A stretch of DNA of 55,033 nt from Parasitella parasitica NRRL 2501 (Eukaryota > Fungi > Mucoromycota). How positions within the stretch are numbered: position 1 is the stretch's first letter; every line of letters begins with the position of its first letter. The notes beneath the pieces are model-generated. The model was not told where the DNA came from. It saw only the letters and a list, made by a program, of their open reading frames with translations, and searched no databases. The stretch covers positions 10,733-65,765 of the forward strand of contig MU619302.1 in assembly GCA_025201805.1 (NCBI GenBank), read 5' to 3'. Positions 29,356-53,493 of this stretch are shown one piece after another. The translations under genes were made by a program, and so were the position numbers.

Positions 29356-30149
29356 TTTAGATTGTTTATTTTATATAAAGAAAAGAGAAAGAAAGAAAGA
29401 GAAAAAAGGGGGAAAGGATGAAGACTATACAGAAAAGAGGTGCAAGCGGGGGATACCGAATTTGAAATCAAGTAGCTATTATCCAATGAAATATAATGGT
29501 TACTGAGCCTGACACGCGCAAGTTTCCCTTTTTCCCTCATCTAAATTGTGATCTCCTCTTGTCTACGGTTTATTAATTTCCTGCAACATTTGAGATAGAA
29601 ACTACTCAACCGTTACAAAATACCTTTTTTTTTTTTTTTTTCGNNNNNNNNNNNNNNNNNNNNNNNNNNNNNNNNNNNNNNNNTCTCAAGTATAAACGAT
29701 ATTCTGCTGCACCGTCGTCTTAACCACATGAAAGTTTAGCTACATGTCTCAATAAAATTTAGCGTGACAGATTTACCATCTTGTATGCATATTCTGACAT
29801 GGCATGGCTACTGCATGTAAAGAATTATCCAATGCACAAATGTCTATCTGGAAATAACTATCGCTTTTAATATTTCCTTAATTTTATACCATGGACTTTG
29901 TTCCAATTAGCACAAAATGAACGAAGGCGCTTCTCTTTCCCAATATACTATAACGCCAACATTCTTTGATGAGCGTTCAAACAAACAAGATAAACCAAGC
30001 CTCTTACCTGATTGATTATTATATTGAAATACATTTACTCACACAACTATTATAAACAATTAGAGCGTAAATACTAGCTTCTTTTCCGTTTCATTGTAAT
30101 AGAATAGTATAGCCTCTGCTGCCTGATCAACGTTAGTGTCTTTTTATTT

Positions 30150-33100
30150 TGCTCCTTTGAAACGACTTTACTAGTTTGGGTGATTTTTGATTACGGTGTA
30201 TCCACTCGAAAATTTCAATGTTTGCTACTCAAGAAATCAACAGATGGATCGAATGTAATTTCTGATAGCTTTGTAACAAATCTCAAGGCTAAGCAAATCT
30301 TTTTGTTCTAAAAGCTATGAAAACCTATCTTTGTCTAATGCTATATCATGCTAGATGTTTCAAGATTATAGTTTCTATAGCAGAGAAAAATGTAATTGCA
30401 GAGATTAGATCAATGAAAAATGAGGTCTCTTGATAGTTGCTTTTGTAATCGTATTTTTCAATATATTGGCTATACAATCATATCAAAATGGTTCCAAGTT
30501 TGCTTATGGGATTTATACCTTGCTCCTAATTGAAAATGGGCGCTTACAAGCAAAGCATTTTTCAAGTGGCCTTTTGAGAATAAAAGCTGTAGCTTAACTG
30601 ATAGAATGTGAGAACCAGCAGTATGATCTGTATCGTGTGGAATAAGCAAATCTTCGTTATAAATATTCCAAGAAAGCCTTAGGTATGTTTGATATGCGTA
30701 TTAAAAGTTTCAAGTAGAGCAATGAATTATGCATCAAACCATGTAGGTTATATCGCTATTAATATACTTTTTTTCGAAACGTTAATTTTCAAATCTTAAT
30801 CAGTCGGTGCACCACATCAATAACTACACGTCCATATAATTTTCTTAGCTGTAGTTCCATTATTTCGACCAATTTTGTCGTCCCTAGATCCATAGGCCCA
30901 AAGTGGGCCTTTCAAGAGGGAAAAAACCCATTCTGCTTTTTTGGATTATCTTGCTCAAAAGTTGATTAAACAAAAACTATTTGGCAGTTATTTGGTAGCT
31001 CTATGTCTGTATCGCAAAAACTACATCTCAAGCGTCTTTTGTCGCTTTGAAAATAAATCAAACTTCTGGCAAGAAAAAAAAAACCTTAAGATTTCTTTTC
31101 CTGATATTTACCTGAAACTTGCATATCTAGGATGTACTCTTAGCTTTAACCCTAAATTTGTACCCTGAAGGTTGACTCAAAATTGAAAACTGAAAACTAA
31201 CTCTGAGGTTTGGCGTCCAAACGAAACAAAACTTAAAAATGGTCAGAGATGCATGAAAATCGGATGTTATTTAGACTAGTCTAAAAGAAGATGCTTTTGT
31301 CTGAAAATTTTATGTTTATTGCTAGATATGTTGCAAAGATATTAAAGATTGCAGATTATGCCTTTAAGCGGGGAAAAAGGTAATGGTTTAGATTGTGTAG
31401 CATTTATTGAATCCAAAAATGAGGGTATATAAAAATATTTTAAGGTTATATTATACAGTACTTCATCTATCAATTCATATTGAGATATACCCAGTTTGAA
31501 TATTAAAATCATACTTCGCTTCTCAATTGAAAATAGGCGGTGCACTCATTTACAGCGACAAAATAGTAGTAGGCTGTATATTCAATCTCAGCAGTATGTT
31601 TCAATTTGGCCCAAACCAAAATCGAGAAATTTTTGCATACTTCATTGCTAGATATCTCAAGAAATTGATAGATATACTGGATATGTGCACTAAATGTTTA
31701 ATAACAAAAATTAAATTCTGCATCTAACCATGTAAATTACAAGGCTATAAAAAGATTTTTTTTTATTACCAATTTTCAAATATTCAAAAAACGCCTTTTT
31801 TGATAGTTTTTGAGTGATAACAAGCATATTTTGAAATCATTCGGCTCTATAAAGTTGATCAAACAAATCAGCATGTCAATACCTACACACCAATAATTTA
31901 TTTACAACTGTAGCTTTATTACATCTGCCAAAAATCAAAATCTTGTCTCGACTAAAATGAATCTACAATTATCCGGTCCTATACTTGGAGGGCCAAAATG
32001 AAGCCATTCAAAAGGATAAAAATCAATTCCGTTTTTCGAGATTTTCTCGCTCAAAAATGGTATTTTTTGACCAAACAAAAACCTTTCGGTAGCTATGTTG
32101 TAGCTCTATTTTTTTATTCCTATGTCATGTATCTTTATATACCATCTATTGCTCTGAAAGTGATGAAAATAAATTAAGCCTCTGCTAAAAACATATGCAA
32201 AAATATTTTTTTCTACATATCTATCTAAAAACTTATACATCTATTAGAGAATCAAATTTCAAAAAGAGTTTAATAATAACTCAAGCCAAAGTGTCTTAGT
32301 GGTTTGTCGAGAAACAGGCTGACCAAATTTACCGTAAAAAGACAAAATTGGCTTAAGCTTGTCGGATTTAAGCTTGACTACGACATATTCAAAACCAGTA
32401 GCTGTACCAAAAAAAACGTGCCTTATTACTTTACTTAAGAGCTTGAACTTGATTTACTTGCAAAATTTGGTATTTGTTATAGGAACATATGCTGAAAAAT
32501 CTGCAAAATCTGCAAAATCTAGCTTTGGCAATATCTCGACAACAAAGATAGATATCGAAAATCGGAAAGCGTAGTGAGGTACAGTTATCATAGCAGTACT
32601 TGAATGTATACTTGCCTTGGACCCCAAATCCGTACCTGAAAATGACCCTGAAGGTCGACCCAAAGTTGAAAATTGAAAATCGAATATGAGGTTTGGGGTC
32701 TAAACAAAGCAAAATCTGAAAAACGGACAGCGGTAGATGAGGTTTGAATATGTTTTAAAATGGTACAAAAGAAGTAGATTTTGGCTGAAAGTTGTATCTC
32801 TATTGCAAAGATAGTAGAGACTGCATATTATGCCTTTAAAGCAGGGACCAAAACATGAAGCTACATGAAATCACTTTTGAGGTCACATTTTACAGCATCT
32901 TGGCATTTCATTCATATCAAGATGGTTCCAAATTATCTATTACTGAAAACATGTTTTGCTTTTGAATTGAAATGAATAGTTGGTTCTTCTGGAAAATATG
33001 TTATGGCAAAAAATGTAAGATTTCCGGTTATGGCTTTTTTGTGGTTTCTGTGAGAGATTTGACAGTAAAGCAAATCTATGAACTACCATAATCTTTGTGA

Positions 33101-33200
33101 TATTTGCACTAAATGTCGAAGGAGTATATACTATAAGAGCTCATCTTAATTTGATATACGGCAGTAAGACTCTCTATTAAAGTTTTTATTATGCTAACCT
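30150..33200. repeat. Degenerate tandem triplication of a 1.0-1.45 kb AT-rich non-coding unit
   Basis: Collinear anchors: catatcaaaatggttccaa (30479), catattgagatatacccag (31476), catatcaagatggttccaa (32913); gatatgcgtattaaaagt (30691), gatatgtgcactaaatgt (31680), gatatttgcactaaatgt (33099); ccctgaaggttgactcaaaattgaaaa (31163), ccctgaaggtcgacccaaagttgaaaa (32646). Confidence 0.75.
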
Positions 33201-34110
33201 TAGCATAATGACAGAGTGTATAAATACATCCCTGAAATGCACCAGTAATAATGTGCAGCTCTTAAGCAGATTTATTTTATATCGACTTTTTGAGTTGACA
33301 ATCCGTCTTAAACTTGTACATCTATTACTTTCAATTAAGTATATCATAATGCAAAGCAGAAAATTCGGGTTTGCAACCAGGTGTATAGAAAAAAAGCAAT
33401 ATCTCGTTTGCTTGAGGAGATGATGGGTATTATCAAAGAATAAAAGGCGAAATGAAATAAGATTTTGACAAAAACTGACATTTCCAAAACTAACACTGGA
33501 ACTCTATAAATATTGAACGTTGCATACACTCAATATACTGAATAGCTTCAAGGCACTCAACAATGTCTTTTTTTTAAGGCTTATCAATTATGGACTAACA
33601 GTTATTATTCTCAAGTTCTGCAAGACAAAAATATATTTTCATCATTGCATTATGTAATTGTTATAACTTTCGTGTGTGATACAATCACATATGCACATAA
33701 GGTAATCGTGTTGAACAATGTGACTCAAAAGTCTCAAAGTATCTTCAAATACAATATAGATATAATTCTTGTATATTTATAGTAGCTCTTGATGATATCA
33801 ATTAATAGCCCGGATAAAAAGTGTTTTACAACAGTGAAGGTAGATGTTGACGACATTTTGGTAGTACACGTACTATCTAGGTCATAACAAATACATCATA
33901 CAAGTTTCTACCATACTAAAATACATAGAGATAACCTGTAATGCTCATCAGCAGATGTAAAAGTGCATGTAAAAAAAAAAAAAAAACCAATATGGAGGCA
34001 CATTACGTGCATAAATGATTGGATATTGATGATTGGCATTGTGCTTGATTACTCACATAGAACAATAAAAGGTTAAACAGGCATTTTTCGCTATTCTTAG
34101 TAGCAAAACC

Positions 34111-34235
34111 AGGTTTGTTACGATTCCGAAGGGACAATCCCAGAGTAGGACACACATGACATCAATAAAAGAAGGTTTAGAAAACCCTGAATACCTATTC
34201 TATTACTTTTTTATGGTCTCGGAATCGTGAAACCT
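34111..34235. mobile_element. Possible MITE (~125 bp) with imperfect terminal inverted repeats
   Basis: aggtttgttacgattccga (34111) pairs with tcggaatcgtgaaacct (34219-34235). No clear TSD. Confidence 0.4.
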
Positions 34236-34609
34236 AACGTTTTTTTACGTAAAGTATCTTGAGAACTGGGCTGAGAATATTATTATATAGTTCGGTTATT
34301 TCATATGGCAATGGCGAATACTTGGTTTCAAGCCTCATTGCAGACGTTTTTTTTTTATTATAGAAGAGTCTTCTACTTGCACCATTTTAACTCAATTGAT
34401 CAGATGAAAAGATAGAGAACAATCTCTGTTTTCAATATTTTTGTCGATATGTCTATTATTAACTCTGCGAGCTAAAAAGCGCACGCATAGATATAAAAAA
34501 ACGGAACATTAGCCATGTCATTGTACTACAACAAGCTCGAAAAAAAGTATAAAATGAAATCGAGTTTCTATTCTCGTTTCTCATCCGCACATAGGAAAAA
34601 GTAAAGACA

Positions 34610-35143
34610 ATGTTTAGAACAATTGCTATTTTTTCGCTTTTCATCATCTGCTACTGTTCAGCTATTATCAATGCAGCCAGTATCCCTGCCAACAACAATC
34701 AGTGGAATAAGAGACCTCGACAATTCAGAATGCAAATATTTTCCAGGCCAGATAGCAAAGGTGCAGTTCAAACTATTCGTGCAACCAATGGAGGTAAGCT
34801 TTATCACAAGTGCAAGAAAATGCAGCGCCAAAAAGGCTAATGTAAATTTTTCAAATAGCTTCCTCGCCTTGCTGGAATTTGGCATCTAAAAGAGTTGGTT
34901 CATACGACTTGAATGATCCGCTGGTCAAAGTTACCTTTTACAGAGTACGTTATAATCTTCACAAGCAGAGGCCAAGTGCATGAAAATAACATTTGCCTTT
35001 TTTAGTCATTGGATTGCAAAGGTGCACCTTCAGCCACCTTTCCTCAAGGGCCTGTGAGTCGAAGCCACGTTATGATCAAAGCTAAATCGGTCTCCATTAC
35101 AAAAGTAAAGGCTATTTCGCTTCGAGATCATCAAACCTTGTAG
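34610..35143 (+). CDS. Small secreted basic protein (~135 aa), possibly beta/gamma-crystallin-like
   Basis: Signal peptide MFRTIAIFSLFIICYCSA, a KR site, and two GT-AG introns that give an open frame ...MQIFSRPDSKG...|ASSPCWNL...KVTFYR|SLDCKGAP...KAKSVSITKV...*. Confidence 0.72.
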
Positions 35144-35592
35144 AAAAACAAATCATAATAGCAATGTATATATAAATGTGATAATGTGTAATATATGTAT
35201 ATACCATCGATATGAAAATAACCAATGTCCAGTCTTTAAATTTGTTGCCATGATGTGTTTCAGGAACCAGATCAGTTTTATAAACCCTCTCGATCCAAAC
35301 ATAGACTTGTTATAAAAGACAGAATTATTCAAGTTTCTTAACAAGAATTTGGATCTTTATCAGGTTCTCCTCGAAAATGAGCAGCCTGCATGGAACACTA
35401 GGGGCTATTGGATAAAATGTAACAATAACATTGCTAAAGAATTCATATATAAATCGAGTTTAGATTAAAATATCTGAGAAATTTATTATTAAAGTAATGT
35501 AACGGTAATAGCTTTATAGAAAGAAAAAAAAAAAAAAAAAGAAGAGTAATGAAAAGGAGTGTGATACATAGAAAGTTTGGAAACATAAAAAT

Positions 35593-37112
35593 TTAAGCAT
35601 GTCCAACAGCTGCACTAAGAGAAACAGAGTGATGATGATAAAGTGGTGTAGGGTTGAAAGTGGATTGTTGGGAATCGGATATAGCATATAAAAAGGCATC
35701 CAACTGTGTGGCTGCAGCTTGAATGGAAAGGTTACTATCCGCAGATGCGACCACAGCAGATGTGCGTCTATGGTGACGAAGCAAGCTATGAGCAGAAGCA
35801 GCAAGTGCATGTCTTGTCGGATATCGTTCTAATAAAGAAGGGTCTCGATCCAAAGCCAAATAAATGGTTGACCCCAAGCCCTCAACTGTCACAGCATCCA
35901 GATTGCCACCCCAATGGCTAGCTAACGTTTTTGCAGATCGCCAGCCGGCCAGGGATTCCCATTCAACCATCAAGGGTGAATTGACGGTCGTAGCGCCAGT
36001 AGACGAAAGGACATGTCCACAAGTGGGAATTCCGAGCGGGTCGCGAGGAATACCAGGCAGGAGATCGCTTTCGAGTAACGGAGCAGCCGCATCTAGTCTG
36101 AATCCAATGCTTGTAGGTCCCCCAAAGATGCGCAATGAGAGAGGTCTGTTTTGAGGGTTATTTGATCTGCTTCTCCATCGACGCTGGAGCCAATTTGAAT
36201 TGCGGTTGATGTCTTCATCGTGAAAAGCTTGTGCTTTGAGAGACAGTAAGGTAGATTCGTAAAGGATGCGATGCAGAATACTGGGAACAAAAGTGAATTC
36301 TTGCTCGATTGGAGTTTTGTGATTTCTGCTGGTCATGGTATCTCGTCTAATGTCGATGTCTGGTATAGCGCGGTCACCGCCGAATGCATTGGCAAATGAC
36401 TTTTGTGCATCAGAAACAGCCTGATGAGCGACTTCTTGAGGGCATGTCTTTTGGGCGTGGTTGTTTGATTGAGCATCCCACGAGAGATGTTGATCTACAA
36501 TGAAAATTTAGGGTTATTTAAAATTCTCCCTTTTTTGCCAAGAGAAATTTTTTAAGGGGGTGGTTTTCAACTTACCAAGTAAGAGATGAATTCCAAAGCC
36601 AATTGTGTTTATATTCTCCATCAGTGTAGCAGAGGCTGCAGTTGGGTTTGATAAAAGCGCATATTTCAACCGAATCAAGTTTGTTGCTTGACTTTGACGT
36701 AAATTGTTAAACACTTTTGACATTGCTTTTGGTGAGGTTTCTCTGAGAGAGGGGTGTAGCAATGTGCAGATATCACGCAAATAGCTATGGGCCACATTCC
36801 GAATGATGGGTGATTGGAGTGAATCTGGAGATAGCGTAGACAATAATCTCAGAATATGTGTGTATCTCACAGGCAGCTCATTGCAGATGAAGGCTGGGCT
36901 GGTAGCTGCAGGCTGCTGACTATGATGGGTGAGAAAAAAAGGTTAAATATGGTTGGTATATAGTAGATGCTGTCGATCTGACAAGTTTACCTTTTTTCGT
37001 TTGTTGATTTACTGGGCACAAGGTGATTTAGAGAGATGCGGGTCTCCTGTGTTGCCCACAAGCCAGCTAAAATTCTACGAGGTAGCACATTGATGATCTG
37101 CGATTGCAACAT
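35593..37112 (-). CDS. Pyruvate/branched-chain oxoacid dehydrogenase kinase homologue with a degenerate ATP-binding site (putative pseudokinase)
   Basis: Three exons with an open frame. PDK landmarks occur in order: TRISLNHL, FICNELPVRYTH, SPIIRNVAHSY, IGFGIHLLL|DQHLS, CPQEVAHQAVSDA, FTFVPSILHRILYE, ASHWGGNLDAVTVEGLGSTIYLAL. Confidence 0.8.
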
Positions 37113-38097
37113 TGTTCAGTAGGCAAGAAGGAAGGAAAAGAGAAAAAAAAAAAAATTAAAGAAGAAAGAAACTAATAAATAGCCCTCTGTCTTTGTGCTT
37201 TTTATATACTACATTGTTATTTGATGGTTTCTAAGATTTCCATTAGAAAAAGGGCCCCTTGCATTGCATTATATCCCTTTTCCAGGTACTTTTTTGTATT
37301 ATTAAACACTAGATCTCATATCTGACTGTGTAATGCGAAATTTCCGGTTGGAAAGATCAGTCTTTTGACAACTTGCATACACACAAGACGAGTTGATTTC
37401 AATGCAAAATGATGGTGCGTTTTTGCCACTTCATAGGCCATCCGTTGCCGTGCCAAACTGAGCATCTCATTCAGAACGGCCCTAAAAAAAGATAAGCTCA
37501 ACGCTCATGTATATATATATATAAGGAGAAATTTGTCCTCTGCTGTTGAGATCTCTACAAAAGGAGAATACCCACATTTGATACATAATCTGGTATCATT
37601 GTTTATTACAAACTTGTAACACAAAAATGCATATCAATGTAGAAACACAAGGAATAATGTATCAAAAATCGTTTTTGTTGTAATAATATTTTGCCCCATC
37701 CAGAGCGTGGCGCTAAAAATATCATATGAGAGATCTCCGTGTTTGTTTAATATTATGTTATTTATTCATTTTCCCCTCCTTGTACAGCTAAATGATGCAT
37801 AACCGTAGTAAGAAAGAAAGGGTTGGACCCACAAAAAGCAGTTCTTTATGAAATTCAAAAAGATTTCTGTCTTGGCGTTTTCCGAGAAATCCATCTTTTG
37901 TTATGCGTCAAAGAAGTCGCCCCCCCCCCAATTCATCATGATTACACATTCACAGTGCATTACATATCGTGCTATCATATTTTATTAATATTTGTATATA
38001 TATACATACACTCCAAGAAACTAGGCTTATATACATGCATAACTGTATATCATAGAGGTAGGAATAATCTGTTGCATTAAATGATGTTGAGGACAAT

Positions 38098-38108
38098 GTT
38101 GTTGTTGT

Positions 38109-38151
<43 letters not shown>
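38098..38151. repeat. (GTT)n microsatellite
   Basis: About 17 GTT units with one interruption, downstream of the bZIP gene. Confidence 0.95.
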
Positions 38152-38294
38152 AAAAAGTAAGCCTTATAAAAATGTGCGTAATTTGGAGGTTGCTTTAAGC
38201 GGAAATATGTCAAGTAGTTTCAGAGTGGGTGCGTAGTGGGGTTACTCATAATGCATGGTATTAGAAAAACCATCGATCGTATAGAGGCAGAATT

Positions 38295-39256
38295 TCAAGT
38301 TGTAAAATTCTGAAAAGGTGGCTGCTGCTCATAGTTTTTTCTATTTGCATTGAATTGAGGACAGTTCTTGTGAGCTACCAGTAATGTTTTCAAATCCATA
38401 ATCTCTTTACGCAGGGAATTGGCTTCCATCTCAAGCTGGTCATTGTCATTACTTAGGTATTCAACTCTAGCCTGCAAATTAGAAAGCCATTGCTTTTTTC
38501 TTTGACGGCATTTTAATGCGGCTAGGTAGAGAAACGATCATTAGTCAGATGCTATGTTTTGGTTAATATCTAGAATGATGATTTACCTATTCTATTTCTT
38601 TCCAAAAAGTTCTTTCGTTTTTCTTCGTCTTCAGGCAGCCTTACTGTGCGGTTTCTTTTTTTGCTGAGCTTATTTTTGACGGGGTATAAAGTTGCATTGT
38701 TGATAGAAGTTGTTGTTGTAGTAGTAATAGCAGAGTTCCTATTATTCTCCTGTGGTTGTCGCTCCATTTGCATCGAATTATGCTATCACGCAGAAACTAA
38801 TTAGAGTCGACACATTTATAAACACGGCTGTAAAATTCCTACCATAGGAACACGATGGAATGTGGTATCGTCACTATCTTCACTAGTTGTCGCCTGATAG
38901 TCAGATACCGATGAGTACGATTCTATTAAATACCCAAGTTTAAAACATGGCCTTCTCCCCTGATTTAATTTAAATTGTTTCGATTCATGTTTCTACTTTA
39001 CCATTCGCAATGGAAGCATTGGACTCAAATGTATATGATGAAATGTCTGTGACCCAAGTATCAACACCAACATCCAATTTTGCAGGCACTGAACATGTAT
39101 CAAATCTTGATTTCGCCGGAACTGAAGAAAAGCTTTGTTCAAAGGGATTGGGCTCTTGATCTGTGGCTTTCACTATTAAGCGTCAAGTTTTATATATTTT
39201 GTTTTACAATAACCATTACCTTTTCGGTTGATGTTGAACGAATTGCTGGAAGACAT
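38295..39256 (-). CDS. ATF/CREB bZIP transcription factor (Atf1/AtfA-like)
   Basis: N-terminal DQEPNPFEQSF (Aft1_OSA-type motif), basic region EKRKNFLERNRI|AALKCRQRKKQWL, leucine zipper ending LLVAHKNC. Confidence 0.88.
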
Positions 39257-40674
39257 GATTGCGAAAAGAAATTACTGTTTTTTTTATTATTATTACTATT
39301 TTTTTTAGATGAAAGTATTTAACAATTGACTGGGACAAGAAAAAGAAGAAAAGAAGGTGATCAGACAGATTTGTGGTCATTTGTCACTTTTAAAATAGAA
39401 TGTCTTAAAAATCTAGATGTAAATTACATCATAAAAATATATTTTAGGTGGTCCCTGTAAAATGCCCTCTGTAGCATATGACGAAGTTTGTGATACTCGA
39501 GTTAGTTCTTACCGAATTCCTGGTTTGATCGTTTGTTATATTCTAGATTTTATCTCTAAGCGATCATAGAAACGTTGGTATAAGGTTCTAAGCTAAAACC
39601 AAGCAAAAAAGCTGTATACACGTATGTAGCTAACGACACTATATTCTAGGTGAGACTCTCTGTCTGACGCAATCAAAAGCAACATCTACTATCAAATACA
39701 ATTGGAAGTCGCAAGCCCATTGCGGTCTGGTGAGGATTCAGAGGCACGAAATTGTATTTGGGTTTGCTTTTTATATATATAATCACAATATAATGATGAA
39801 GCAAGTGTTTCGGGTATATGCAACTTTATCAGGATTGCAAAAATTAATATGATAGCATGTTCTGTCGCACAAGTTATAATATAAAAACAGACAAAATGAA
39901 CTCGTCGTTTGGTTCAGAGCCTTTACCTTACCTTTCACATAGGGATTGTATGCATGCAATTTCTCTTGAAATGCCTCCAACATCATGTGTTTTGAAGCTT
40001 CTTCTAGTGCAACTTGATAACTAGTCAAATGATTCTAAATTTCGAAGCAAATGCTTCTCGATGATGGCGAGCCAAAGTCAAATACGTCATATTTGTTTAT
40101 ATCAATCGAACGCGGCCAGAATATCATGCGTTGCAACATCAAGTCTTATCATTATCATAAAGGTAAGTTATATGACCTAGTTTCTGTAATGCAACTTACC
40201 GTGTGGCAGAATGAGCAGTATCCGTGCAATTGTAATGTCACGATTGCATGTTTGAGATATATATCTACGTTAAATACCAAAGCCTGGGAGGAGTTTCAGG
40301 CATGTGCGGATGATGGCGTGTCATATTGCCGTCACTTGCAAACACAATGCGTTGTTCTCTTTTACGATCCCATCGCAGTATATGAAAAGCGTATAGCATC
40401 TCATTCCCTTAAAATGTGTAGGACGTATGCTGATTTGTCACATTTGCCTTGAACAACTCGCGGCAGGCTCTTATATGAAGAGCCTCAAATTTAAAGTCGC
40501 TTCTCAACGGTGTGTAAGACATAGACTGAAGCTATAGTATATACATACACATATATATTACTGTTTGTTTTATTATTAAAAAAAAGTGGAAGAATGCAGA
40601 AAGAAAATCAAATAGGCGGCGTCTTTATCGCTGGGGATTTATATAAATATATATATGTCTTTTCGAAGGATCAT

Positions 40675-42427
40675 TTAAACACCCAAAAGAAGTCTTCTGG
40701 GATCTTCAACAAGTTCCTTGATTCTAACCAAGAATGTAACAGCCTCACGACCATCAACGAGTCTGTGATCGTAAGTGAGAGCAACATACATCATGGGACG
40801 GATTTCGACCTACAATGCCATGGTTAGACTCCAATCCCCCCACATATTTACCATTATCATACCTTTCCGTTAACAGCAATAGGTCTTTCCTTGATAGAGT
40901 GCATACCCAAAATAGCAGTTTGGGGCAAGTTGATGATGGGAGTACCCATCAAAGAACCAAAGACACCACCGTTGGAAATGGTAAAGGTACCACCAGCCAT
41001 ATCCTCAATAGTGATCTTGTTATCACGGGCCTACATTAATGCGGATAAATCAACTAGTGCTACTTGGTCCTTTCAAATGCCTACCTTTTTGCCGAGTTCG
41101 GCAATGTTCTTTTCAATGTCAATGAAGCCCATATCTTCGACATTTCTCAATACAGGGGTGACGAGACCCTTGGGAGTAGAGACAGCAACGCTCATATCGA
41201 CAAAGTCGTGATAAACGATTTCTTGGCCATCAATAGAAGCATTAACAGCAGGAATTTCTCTCAGTGCCTCAGCAGAAGCCTTGACAAAAGCAGACATGAA
41301 ACCAAACTTGACACCATGCTTCTTGACAACGGCATCCTTATATTCAGCACGAAGGCTCATCAGGTTTGTCATGTCAATTTCGTTAAAGGTGGTCAATGAC
41401 GCGGCGGTATCTTGGGATTGTTTCAAACGCTCAGCAATTCTAAGACGCATACGGTTCATCTTGACACGAGATTCGTTGCGGCTGCCAAAGACCTTTTCAG
41501 CATCTTCAGCCTTGGGAGCAGGAGCAGGAGCAGGAGCAGCAGGCTTGGGAGGAGCAGCGGCAGCAGGCTTGGGAGCCTCTTCCTTCTTGGGCTCTGCAGC
41601 GGCAGGTTTTGAATCTTCAGCTTGTTCTTTAGGCTCTTCCTTCTTAGCAGCAGGAGCCGAACCTATTTTTTNNNNNNNNNNCACGTATAAATATACAAAA
41701 AGTGATACAGCAAGTGTTATATTTCCCACGAACCTTCTTTTGGTGCATCACCAAGCTCTAACTTGAAGAAATCGGCGCCAACAGAGACATTGTCCTCTTC
41801 TTGAGCGTAAACTTCAACAATGGTGCCTGAAGCAGGAGAGTTGACAGTGACATCGATTTTATCAGTTTCGATTGTAGCAACCTCTTCGTCTTGACTAACA
41901 AAATCACCAACCTCTGTTTGTACATACGTTATACAGACAGTACACAAAAACAACATTGTACACAATACTTACGCTTCACCCATTGTTTGAGGGTACCTTC
42001 AGAAATTGACTCCGCCATCTGGGGAACCTTGACAACCTTGTCAGCTATTCATTTTTAAACGAAATGCTCATTAACATGTTTCCTTGGTTACGAGCGGATG
42101 TGCGTATATATACGTTACCATAGTTTCTGATTTGATATATGAAAGCACCATTCTTGAGGTCCTTGGATTGTCTGTAAAGGTTTTAGTGTTAGTATTAGTT
42201 TGTGTCCCAAATGCTGATGGGCTTTTTCGCTTCCTCTCTTTTCCTCCTCCATGCCTTGCCATATTTTCATACCTAAAACGATCGTAACCTACAGTATATA
42301 AAGCTGCAGGAGCTTGGACGTGCAAGTTTCTAACTTGAGACAAGTTGCGCAAAGCAGCTGTTGTAGTTTTTGAGGTAGAGAGGCGGGTGATTCTACTTGC
42401 AAGGGGTGATACACGAGAATATTGCAT
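40675..42427 (-). CDS. KGD2: 2-oxoglutarate dehydrogenase E2 (dihydrolipoamide succinyltransferase)
   Basis: Mitochondrial presequence, lipoyl domain ([17 protein letters not shown]), Pro/Ala linker, [27 protein letters not shown] and [12 protein letters not shown]. Small N gap in an intron. Confidence 0.95.
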
Positions 42428-44113
42428 TATAAATATTAATTAAAAGAAAGAAAAGGTTCAAGAAAGTGGGGAAAAGTATATTTTATACAAGTGGGGAAAG
42501 AAATAATTTTTTTTTATTTACTTTTCATTTAAGAAAGGGCCCTCTCCCTTTTTTTTTTTTTGCCCGGGTGACGACGGCTGCAAAGCGTTTGTATTCAATA
42601 ACTGGGGATATATTTTTAGCCCGTACTTTAGCGGAAGACATGAATCTGTATGCTTTCTTCATATGGAAGAAGTAATTACCGGCAATTATACTCTTCTTGA
42701 AGCCAAAATGCAGTTTCTTGTCTCTCAGAACATTTGAAATGGCATGCAAGTAATAAATAACTACTAGACGAAAGAAGCACTCCAATCACTTGATATAGCA
42801 CTGTAGGTCATCTTTCTTCGTTTTGCTAAATCCATATCAACAGACTTGACTATGTGGCTGTTGATTTGAGCCGATAACCTCGATAAAAGCTAGACTAAAA
42901 CGTCTCATCATGGGTTCTAAACTTCAATGACTCGAAAGCAAATGCAATTGTATAAAAGGCTTGCAGATTAAAGAACATGTTAGTTTCCTAAAAGTTTCGT
43001 TAAACTTTCATTAGCTCACGAATCTTTCCGTATCATTTTCGCTCTACGATCATAATTGGGCTCACCGATAACTATGTGAGTAAATAGATTTGCGCGAATT
43101 TTATATGCGATTTTTTCAGGAGAAATGAAGAAGAAAAAAAAGGCTTTCGTACTCTTGTAACCACTTTATCAATAGCTTTGGCATCATTTGGTCGAGTGAA
43201 ATGAACCTCAATTTTATCATGTTGCAGTAAAATAAATTTTTAAATTTAGCCTCATCCAGAGTCTTTTTGTTCAAAATTATGGGAGCGAAATAAGGATATA
43301 ACCTAGTTACACTGTATGAAATACATGTGCCCCATTTTGAGTTTTGGACGTCAAGGCAAGAAGCGTTTTTTTTTTCGCTATAGAAGTTAATCTCCAAAGT
43401 TTTTGATTTCATGTGGAACAAAAGTAAAAGACATCCTCAAACCCAAGAAAATGGGGTTTATGTACCCATAATTAGGCCTGACTAGATCTTTTGGAAATTA
43501 AAAGCCTCTTACAGATTAAAATGGTTTTGATTTTCTGCAAATGATGCCACCAGATTAGGCTATATATGATCAGTAGAATGCCCCGATGAGCTAATTGAAG
43601 AAGAAAAGTGAGGATTGCCTATACCAGGATGGGAATACACTTTGCAGTAATCAATATTTACTAAAACCAGTGCCAAAGATGTTGCCAGCCTCTGCCATTC
43701 ACCAAAATTCACTTTGCTCACTTTATGAGCAAAGAGTTAGTTTTTGACAAATACCAGTATTAAACCCACGCTGAAATAGTTTTAGAAATCAGGAAAATTG
43801 CCACGGATTCTTATGAAGGAATCGCTTTTATCGAGAAGCTGTTTCCGCAAATTGAACAATGTTTTAATAGTGCAGATAACAGTGCAGATATTTGATCTAA
43901 ACATTGAATCTTGATAATCTTTATCTTTTGTATTTTGCAGCGATTATTATACTGACAAACATGCCTATCTATTGTAATACTGCACGGAATCTAGTCATTG
44001 CATTAAATTACACCCCCTTTTTATAGTGACCGCCCTCAATAATGTAGTATAAAGTATCGCCAGCCGCTTGCCCCAAAAAAATCGTGTTTTTTTCCTTGAG
44101 AAAACATTCCAAA

Positions 44114-51996: not shown

Positions 51997-53493
51997 CAGT
52001 GGTTCCACTGCCAATTTGAGGATTTTATACGAACTTTTAAAATAAAAATTGGGGGTTTAACAAAAAAATTTGCAGTGATTGTTCGAAGTTCAATTCACGG
52101 ATTTGTAAGAAATAATTTCACAGATATTTTTTCACCTTCTAAAAAAATGAAATCGCTAGTATTTTTAAAGGAAGACGGCAAAGGAAATATTTACGACGAG
52201 AATGGAGCTGAAGCAATCGACATTGTTGATGAGAAGCCTGATCCTTACGCTTTAAAGCAATTAGTTAATCTTGATTCTTACCTAAAAGAAAGCGCTAAGT
52301 TTCCCACCAACGATAAACACATTGGACAAAGCGAAGAAGAAATAGGAACAACTATGAAAATAAGTGCAGAACGCTTAACTAAGTATATGACATATGGTTC
52401 TGGCACAAAACCAGTACAAAGTCCAGTGCCTATTTTCGGTTAGAGCTGCGGCTCTTGAAGCAGGCGTCAAAGAAAGTACTGCTCGCGCCTGGTGGAAAAG
52501 CATCCAGACTCTTTTACTCTTGAAAAGAAAACCAATATTCAAAACAGGCCGAAATCACAGCTACAGGAAGAGCATAAGCAATGTTTAATTAAGTTTTACG
52601 ATGATGACCCAGGTGCCTATATTCAAGACGCTGTTGAGATGCTTACCAGCAAGTTTGCTGGTCTTGAGATCAAGAAATCAAGAGTACATGAGTTTATGAG
52701 AGACGATTGTAACCTCTCTTTTAAGAAAGCTACTTTTTGATCCGAGGCAAGAACAAGCTCAGATACCATCCAAAAACGTTACGATTGGGTCGTCGCATGG
52801 AGTAATTCATATTTGGATTTTTCTAAAAACTGCGTTTTTATCGATGAAGCTGGCTTCCATATCAACATGAAAGCGAGTTGAGCATGGGCTCCCAGAGGGC
52901 AAATGGCAGTGGTCACCACCCCTACGACAAAAGCACCTAAACATACCATTATTGGCGCCATATCATCTGTAGGTGTGGTAAACCTGAGTCTTCGTGTACC
53001 AAAGCAACAGCCAAAGGTAAGGAAGATCCAGGGTGGCAAAAAGAGAAAAAGCCCTGAAGCAGCTTCTAGAGAAGAAGGGCCAAAAGACACAACTGCCGGT
53101 CATTATTTAAGATTCTTAAGGGAGACCTTGGATATTATGGACAAGCATGATCAAATGAAAGGTTTTTATCTGATTATGGACAATGCACCGATCCATTCGT
53201 CTAAACAAATAGAAGAAATTATCTATGAAAGAGGTCGGGACTATAAGTACGTTTATCTTCCTCCTTATTTACCAGAGCTCAATCCAATTGAACAGTTCTG
53301 GGCATTGGTAAAAGGCAAAATGAAGCGCCACAAGCTTGAAGATGCAGAAACACTCCCAGACAGAGTTATTGATGCTGCAAATGAAGTCCCTATCCAGCAT
53401 CTCCAAAATATAATTCAGCACTCAAAAGACCATTTTGTAAACTGTTTAAACCACATCCCAATCAAAGTGTTTGTATCAGAAGATGAAAAATAG
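51997..53493 (+). mobile_element. Inactive Tc1/mariner-IS630 (DDE_3) transposon
   Basis: HTH region (SVRAAALEAGVKESTARAW), FIDEAGF, IMDNAPIH and YLPPYLPELNPIEQFW, with 36 residues between the second D and the E. One frameshift near 52420 and TGA stops at 52738 and 52879. Candidate left end CAGTGG at 51997; no matching right TIR found. Confidence 0.9.

Follow-up and report, generated by a model that had tools for sequence, protein, structure and literature searches.

Pyruvate and branched-chain acids enter mitochondrial oxidation under the control of PDK and BCKDK, which the literature consulted treats as active kinases. Catalysis depends on the GHKL-type ATP site, in which the asparagine of the N-box binds Mg and is needed for activity. 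In other families, both pseudokinases and GHKL domains that have degenerated are established, examples of degenerate GHKL/histidine pseudokinases being DivL, the subfamily II ethylene receptors, the phytochrome HKRD and the meiotic TOPOVIB-like proteins. The protein described here would resemble these in using the GHKL fold as a binding module after motif loss; they belong to other branches of GHKL proteins, however, and all are without the PDK regulatory bundle. Among the PDKs themselves, docking takes place onto the E2 lipoyl domain (PMC3397410), and residues Asn247, Arg250, Asp282 and Thr346 of PDK2 line the ATP site and contact an ATP-site inhibitor (PMC4350332). PMC4920349 is consistent with the requirement for the N-box asparagine. 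The yeast proteins Pkp1 and Pkp2, which work as a heterodimer (PMC10345312), and PkpA, PkpB and PkpC of Aspergillus are, like the protein described here, fungal PDK paralogues with divergent roles (PMC10345312; PMC6027865). They differ from the Mucorales protein in being described there as kinases. No PDK pseudokinase and no account of the Mucorales family was found in a literature search that covered mainly journals open without subscription. A conserved, kinase-dead member of the PDK family would reveal what role the PDK fold has once catalysis is gone, and the Mucorales, which are noted for fermentative dimorphism, lipid production and mucormycosis, would have a control point that has so far gone unrecognised.

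The gene analysed lies in a window of 55,033 nucleotides of contig MU619302.1 from Parasitella parasitica NRRL 2501, in which a preliminary description, made from the letters alone, had pointed to an open PDK-like frame of three exons with canonical introns. The frame proved to be exactly so. The coding sequence, on the minus strand, comprises 1368 nt encoding 455 amino acids, with no internal stops. The coding part of exon 1 (36991..37112, 122 nt, residues 1–41) specifies a conserved N-terminus, almost devoid of acidic residues, which corresponds to the first helix of a PDK; exon 2 (36576..36919, 344 nt, residues 41–156) specifies the regulatory helical bundle, BCDHK_Adom3 (PF10436), including the ELPVR motif; and exon 3 (35593..36494, 902 nt, residues 156–455 and the stop codon) specifies a degenerate GHKL domain and a Mucorales-specific tail. 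Introns 1 (36920..36990, 71 nt) and 2 (36495..36575, 81 nt) are both bounded by GT..AG, and both are spliced out in a 1470-nt contig from X1, the single run listed for this stretch; the contig joins the exons at the predicted borders with 0 differences. This contig spans 35555..37126 on the minus strand, a span that does not give the true transcript ends. X1 is not recorded as RNA, and we take it as such because it contains 10 GT-AG joints over about five neighbouring genes; these fall within 30000–41660, where there is little intergenic cover. The transcript evidence is that of one run from one study, in contigs that carry no expression level, and a spliced transcript is present where the preliminary description had named its absence as evidence against its reading. 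The protein is identical to KAI8640762.1 (P0089), a hypothetical protein of 455 amino acids from P. parasitica. Database labels for the family are 'hypothetical' or, in UniRef, 'Protein-serine/threonine kinase', the latter being probably wrong.

Both descent and fold place the gene in the PDK/BCKDK family, with a homology to PDKs well beyond chance. Exon 2 scores 24.4 bits against PF10436, just over the cut-off of 24; exon 3 is unmatched by the HATPase_c profile and, searched alone by sequence against the PDB, gave zero matches. A homologue search with exon 3 found 76 proteins, every named one of which is from a Mucorales genus (an assignment checked for Radiomyces). Alignment A1 was built from the 44 of these that are named and near-full-length, leaving out 32 shorter or unnamed sequences. 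In the profile search proposed in the preliminary description, BCDHK_Adom3 is matched by all 44 and HATPase_c, at E ≤ 0.5, by none; all five non-Mucorales orthologues tested match HATPase_c at E ≤ 1e-4, two of them above the cut-off. The A1 profile finds PDK1–4 and BCKDK with E values of 6e-14 to 2e-10, and HHalign pairs the family with its intact relatives at a probability of 100 over 354 columns.

An AF2 model made for P0001, which is identical to the window protein at 438 of 455 residues, has a pLDDT of 82.3 and a pTM of 0.83. Foldseek matches this model to PDKs with an E value of 1.7e-14, and VIA superimposes it on PDK4 over 322 residues with a Z score of 31.1, an rmsd of 3.2 and 15% identity. 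The superposition covers model residues 10–390, and the match to PDKs runs from end to end. The Parasitella protein is thus predicted to fold fully like a PDK, in two domains of which the C-terminal one is of GHKL type. Residues 397–455 of the model extend beyond this fold; the helix at 413–428 is confident and the remainder is not. In comparison with mammalian PDK1–4 and BCKDK, which combine PF10436 with PF02518, the two-domain fold is shared over residues 10–390 (Z 29–31), as are the regulatory bundle, the N-box glutamate and the final hairpin. The Mucorales protein differs from them in its low identity (about 15%), the lack of a HATPase_c match, the broken N, G1 and G2 boxes and the new tail. 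The ESM Atlas returned PDK-family clusters at 0.95–0.96; when HATPase families were skipped, all hits fell under 0.9 and were uninformative on other dead PDK families.

The ATP-site motifs were compared column by column in 49 Mucorales rows (the window protein, the 44 of A1, P0079 and P0084–P0086) from 28 genera, in 37 rows from other early-diverging fungi hand-picked to span lineages, and in an outgroup of 15 rows from plants, algae and further eukaryotes, two of them probably bacterial. Protein databases represent open frames only, among which broken copies would not show. At the level of sequence, three of the motifs that define an active PDK kinase are not intact in the Mucorales protein, namely the N-box asparagine, G1 and G2. 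In the N-box helix (residues 230–243, 36232..36273, minus strand), Glu235 is present in 49 of 49 Mucorales sequences, and the lysine and asparagine are replaced in the window protein by Leu238 and Leu239, neither being retained in any of the 49. The asparagine column, that of PDK2 Asn247, holds Leu in 34, Ile in 7, Met in 4 and Val in 3, against Asn in 33 of 37 other fungi and in 15 of 15 outgroup rows; the loss of this residue had been correctly read from the stretch ESTLLSLKA. The column of Lys242, equivalent to PDK2 Arg250, is Arg or Lys in 42 of 49. A His-to-Arg change in the same helix was considered as a sign of decay and set aside, Arg being found also in intact orthologues and Gln in plants.

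The G1 region (residues 290–307, 36040..36093, minus strand) has lost its glycines, which are found in 1, 0 and 11 of 49 Mucorales sequences at the three columns, and carries instead the family motif PRD (38 of 49). The DxGxG pattern is absent from all 49, and a D.G.G-type G1 is present in all 37 rows of the other early-diverging fungi. The preliminary description had placed G1 at DAAAP, which is probably wrong: MAFFT and HHalign agree on an insertion of 8–9 residues here, after the strand, with Asp299 opposite the G1 aspartate. Asp299, retained in 45 of 49, rather than Asp290 of DAAAP (19 of 49), is probably the equivalent of that residue. In the G2 region (residues 334–341, 35938..35961, minus strand), the first and second glycines of GxGxGL are present in 1 and 0 of 49; the third, Gly339, is present in all, and the leucine that follows in all 52 other rows is Trp (Trp340) in 49 of 49. 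The reported loss of G2 in WESLAG is therefore right for the first two glycines but not for the third. In the final hairpin and G3 region (residues 349–370, 35851..35916, minus strand), the GG pair is kept, the GxG glycines Gly361 and Gly363 are invariant in the 49 sequences, and the threonine is mostly replaced by serine (Thr 5, Ser 38, Ala 6 at the column of Ser364). The hairpin and the ELPVR segment thus remain as first described. That the protein lacks every ATP-binding motif was an overstatement, since N, G1 and G2 are nowhere intact but Glu235, Gly339, Gly361 and Gly363 are retained throughout.

In the window protein, the equivalents of PDK2 Asn247, Arg250, Asp282 and Thr346 are Leu239, Lys242, probably Asp299 (past the insertion) and Ser364. 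Asp282 was taken to be the G1 aspartate, and the other three were mapped through the profile alignment, in which the offset is 8. Within the bundle, a histidine column that is His in 15 of 15 outgroup rows and 25 of 34 other fungi is Gln in 49 of 49 Mucorales and in 3 of 3 Umbelopsis sequences; this is probably the column of Arabidopsis His-121, mentioned in PMC4920349. Taken together, the altered motifs suggest that the Mucorales protein very probably neither binds ATP-Mg nor transfers phosphate.

The state of motif loss is common to the 49 sequences and 28 genera, at identities of about 40–97%. The orthologue comparison that had been proposed accordingly gave 49 of 49 without the asparagine and 49 of 49 without DxGxG. 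Orthologues with intact boxes, which the preliminary description had held would, together with a dN/dS near 1, count against it, are not found among these 49, but the sister lineages are mostly intact. At least eight Mucorales species have two copies of the family. There are 109 positions conserved at 90% or more in the Mucorales, 55 of them in common with intact relatives and 54 family-specific, a count that carries the uncertainty of column assignment in poorly aligned parts. The family-specific positions include Trp340, Arg341 (at least 90%), a GGPTS hairpin (45 of 49) and, in the tail, H-x-[VI]-S-L, found in 45 of 49 Mucorales sequences, 0 of 37 other fungi and 0 of 15 outgroup rows. The bundle landmarks Phe51, Glu55-Leu56-Pro57, Arg59 and Tyr87 are retained, and the sheet region, residues 331–381, has a mean identity of 69% within the Mucorales.

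Pairwise identities over shared columns reveal a shift of conservation towards the regulatory half. In the Mucorales this half averages 0.63 and the kinase half 0.55, the regulatory value being higher in 1062 of 1176 pairs; the corresponding values are 0.53 and 0.59 in other fungi (131 of 561 pairs) and 0.67 and 0.75 in the outgroup (4 of 105 pairs). The shift holds also at matched divergence, with the qualification that the pairs are non-independent and that the kinase half would score lower simply through the missing ATP motifs. No Mucorales locus turned up in a scan of metagenomes. Because the gene is transcribed and conserved, with motif loss common to all 49 sequences, we do not regard it as decaying; conservation at the protein level is best read as that of an old family under selection.

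An exhaustive representative search beyond the Mucorales family returned only four weak hits, three of them assigned to Bifiguratus, to Syncephalis and to a cluster from Umbelopsis. A profile built from such orthologues reached Endogonales, Umbelopsis, Glomeromycotina, Mortierellomycotina, Basidiobolus, Kickxellomycotina and one chytrid, followed by plant and algal PDKs, among the best 120 of 1192 matches. The intact fungal orthologues are nearer to PDKs (E 1e-83 to 1e-90) than to BCKDK (1e-77 to 1e-79). Our careful tree has 40 rows, from which the long rows of Calcarisporiella, Syncephalis, Quaeritorhiza, Paraglomus and Sporodiniella were omitted; its 11 outgroup rows do not include animal PDK, BCKDK or canonical Mucorales PDK, one of them (L073) has a motif that we take to resemble canonical ascomycete PDK, and no AU test was applied. 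In this tree, the Mucorales form a clade with support of 100/100, the sister group is Umbelopsis (100/99) and Endogonales-type rows come next (98/92), in an order that agrees with the species tree. All fungal orthologues form one clade (100/100) against the PDKs of plants, algae, bacterial contigs and other eukaryotes, and the label 'plant-type PDK', which we had considered, was dropped, the fungal clade being separate from the plant PDKs. A quick tree of 65 rows that included the long rows again joined the Mucorales with Umbelopsis, with support of 97. The stem branch leading to the Mucorales measures 2.33 in the 40-row tree, the tips measuring 0.12–0.51, and this long stem could bias the placement of Umbelopsis. 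We conclude from these phylogenies that the Mucorales family derives from a clade of PDK paralogues in early-diverging fungi, most of them intact, with which it also shares a similar N-terminus, and from which it is set apart by the N-box asparagine and G1 counts given above.

Umbelopsis is intermediate in its motifs. All three of its sequences (P0087, P0107 and P0108, among the partly degenerate non-Mucorales orthologues) retain the asparagine and G1; the N-box lysine and arginine and two G2 glycines are gone, and the G2 loop is shortened. The N-box asparagine is also replaced in single orthologues from Bifiguratus, Syncephalis, Calcarisporiella and one Haplosporangium (P0083, P0080, P0191 and P0143), so that the clade either tolerates or repeats such loss; these cases may be repeated independent events. 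We found no functional study of the early-diverging-fungal orthologues, whose members are auto-annotated. Mucor lusitanicus carries a copy of the family and, with intact, intermediate and dead orthologues at hand, the idea of a kinase-dead PDK is directly testable.

Intronless PDK homologues with intact motifs were also seen on two bacterial-looking contigs. One (L050:2486-3583) carries PF10436 and PF02518 and adjoins genes for a 4-alpha-glucanotransferase and an enoyl-CoA hydratase; the other (L064:2213-3577) adjoins a TctC/TctB gene. A further intronless homologue, a 71% match to P0195, lies in a Terriglobia MAG (L081:3001-4092), and the PDK type of the bacterial-looking contigs gives the best score for about 16 of 80 loci. 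PDK is usually held to be eukaryotic.

The reading that we prefer, with a probability of about 50%, is that the Mucorales protein is a kinase-dead regulator with the PDK fold, attaching itself to a 2-oxoacid dehydrogenase complex and forming a dimer with an active PDK. The conservation seen is of the kind expected of a binding protein made from this fold. The reading is proposed because PDK docks on E2, PDKs dimerise through the sheet (the 331–381 region in the window protein) and Pkp1 and Pkp2 form a heterodimer. With its ATP-binding motifs lost, the protein would act through binding rather than phosphorylation; for binding to either the complex or an active PDK as its function, we see even chances. 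The searches retrieved no intact PDK from a Mucorales genome. The regulatory domain would dock the protein on the complex, an active PDK would be its assumed partner, and occupation of docking sites or formation of half-dead dimers would, as a first guess, damp phosphorylation, with boosting as the alternative. The protein is rather likely to be located in the mitochondrial matrix, as judged from the first 22 residues, which in the 49 Mucorales rows contain a mean of 2.1 Lys/Arg and 0.1 Asp/Glu and include a strongly amphipathic stretch. Against this, part of the basic N-terminus already belongs to the fold, as its first helix (model residues 10–30), and a clear separate presequence is absent.

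A further difficulty for a docking regulator is the conservation around the old pocket of Glu235, Asp299, Gly339, Trp340 and the PRD motif, which could point to a remodelled ligand site. The protein may instead, as a clearly less probable account, have become a ligand sensor, the pocket having been rebuilt for a metabolite or a Mg-free nucleotide whose binding switches a partner. Arg341 adds to the residues conserved about the former ATP site and its lid, yet all of these may merely pack or fill a cavity, and conservation is lower on the kinase side. The likelihood of a pyruvate-sensor role of the classical type is reduced by the column of PDK2 Arg154, a residue with a pyruvate/DCA role, which is Gly in 38, Ser in 6 and His in 3 of 49 Mucorales sequences, Arg not being among the main residues.

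Unlikely to a similar degree is recruitment to a task that has nothing to do with the dehydrogenases, perhaps outside the mitochondria, in which the new tail and surfaces would be used. The long stem branch, the 54 family-specific positions and the new C-terminal helix and motif would suit such a role, as would the RRx[ST] motif that 25 of the 49 proteins carry, the absence of a separate presequence and the non-PDC substrates and roles of yeast PDKs (PMC10345312); the retained bundle landmarks and the basic, acid-free N-terminus argue against it. That the protein is still an active kinase, with a non-canonical mode of nucleotide binding, is improbable: the invariant N-box glutamate, the probable G1 aspartate, the last G2 glycine, the G3 GxG and the basic residue at 242 are what such an enzyme might keep, but aliphatic residues replace the N-box asparagine and lysine in every sequence, the G1 glycines are gone behind an insertion and the G2 loop has been rebuilt. 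A functionless, decaying gene, to which the lost catalytic motifs might point, is hardly credible in view of the open, spliced frame, the state common to so many genera, the new invariant residues and the retained duplicates.

A more specific and tentative proposal, which we think somewhat less likely to be right than wrong, is that in the Mucorales a PDK paralogue became, step by step, a dedicated kinase-dead subunit in control of a dehydrogenase, whose switch is the rebuilt pocket or the new tail. The series from intact motifs (Endogonales, Mortierella) through partial loss (Umbelopsis) to loss and re-fixation (Mucorales) would then record the birth of a GHKL pseudokinase, and a pseudokinase layer would lie on the mitochondrial carbon gate, at the pyruvate or another 2-oxoacid dehydrogenase.

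The C-terminal extension (35596..35730, minus strand), confined to the Mucorales, consists of the predicted helix at 413–428 and the terminal H-x-[VI]-S-L. The tail region as a whole, residues about 385–447 (window 35635–35810, minus strand), contains the RRx[ST] motif, presumably of PKA type and lying in the tail linker of the window protein, together with the His-rich terminal motif. Residues 441–447 bear a faint likeness to the opening of the E1-alpha site-1 peptide YHGHSMSDPGSTYR (PMC3397410). The form H-S-[VI]-S-L occurs in 29 of 49 Mucorales sequences, so that the matching serine is not invariant, and the tail is without the Gly, Met, Asp and Pro which in the site-1 peptide are either invariant or required. 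We have therefore set aside the tail as a substrate mimic, which is at best a weak and quite improbable lead.

A gene for an E2 subunit of a 2-oxoacid dehydrogenase lies about 3.6 kb from the pseudokinase gene (40677–42428, minus strand) and is spliced in X1. It matches PF00198 (E 2e-38) and the lipoyl domain PF00364 (E 1e-12), and from its motifs we take it to be of the 2-oxoglutarate type; its proximity may be due to chance and carries no weight in the reading given here. Between the two genes is one for a bZIP transcription factor (about 38160–39160, minus strand; PF00170, E 6e-09), with three introns spliced in X1. On the other side, a small spliced gene (about 34600–35510, plus strand), which starts with a signal-peptide-like stretch, converges on the 3' end of the pseudokinase gene. 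Transposon-like reading frames occur at 52882–53493 and 19–558, both on the plus strand, the former being presumably a DDE transposase-like fragment.
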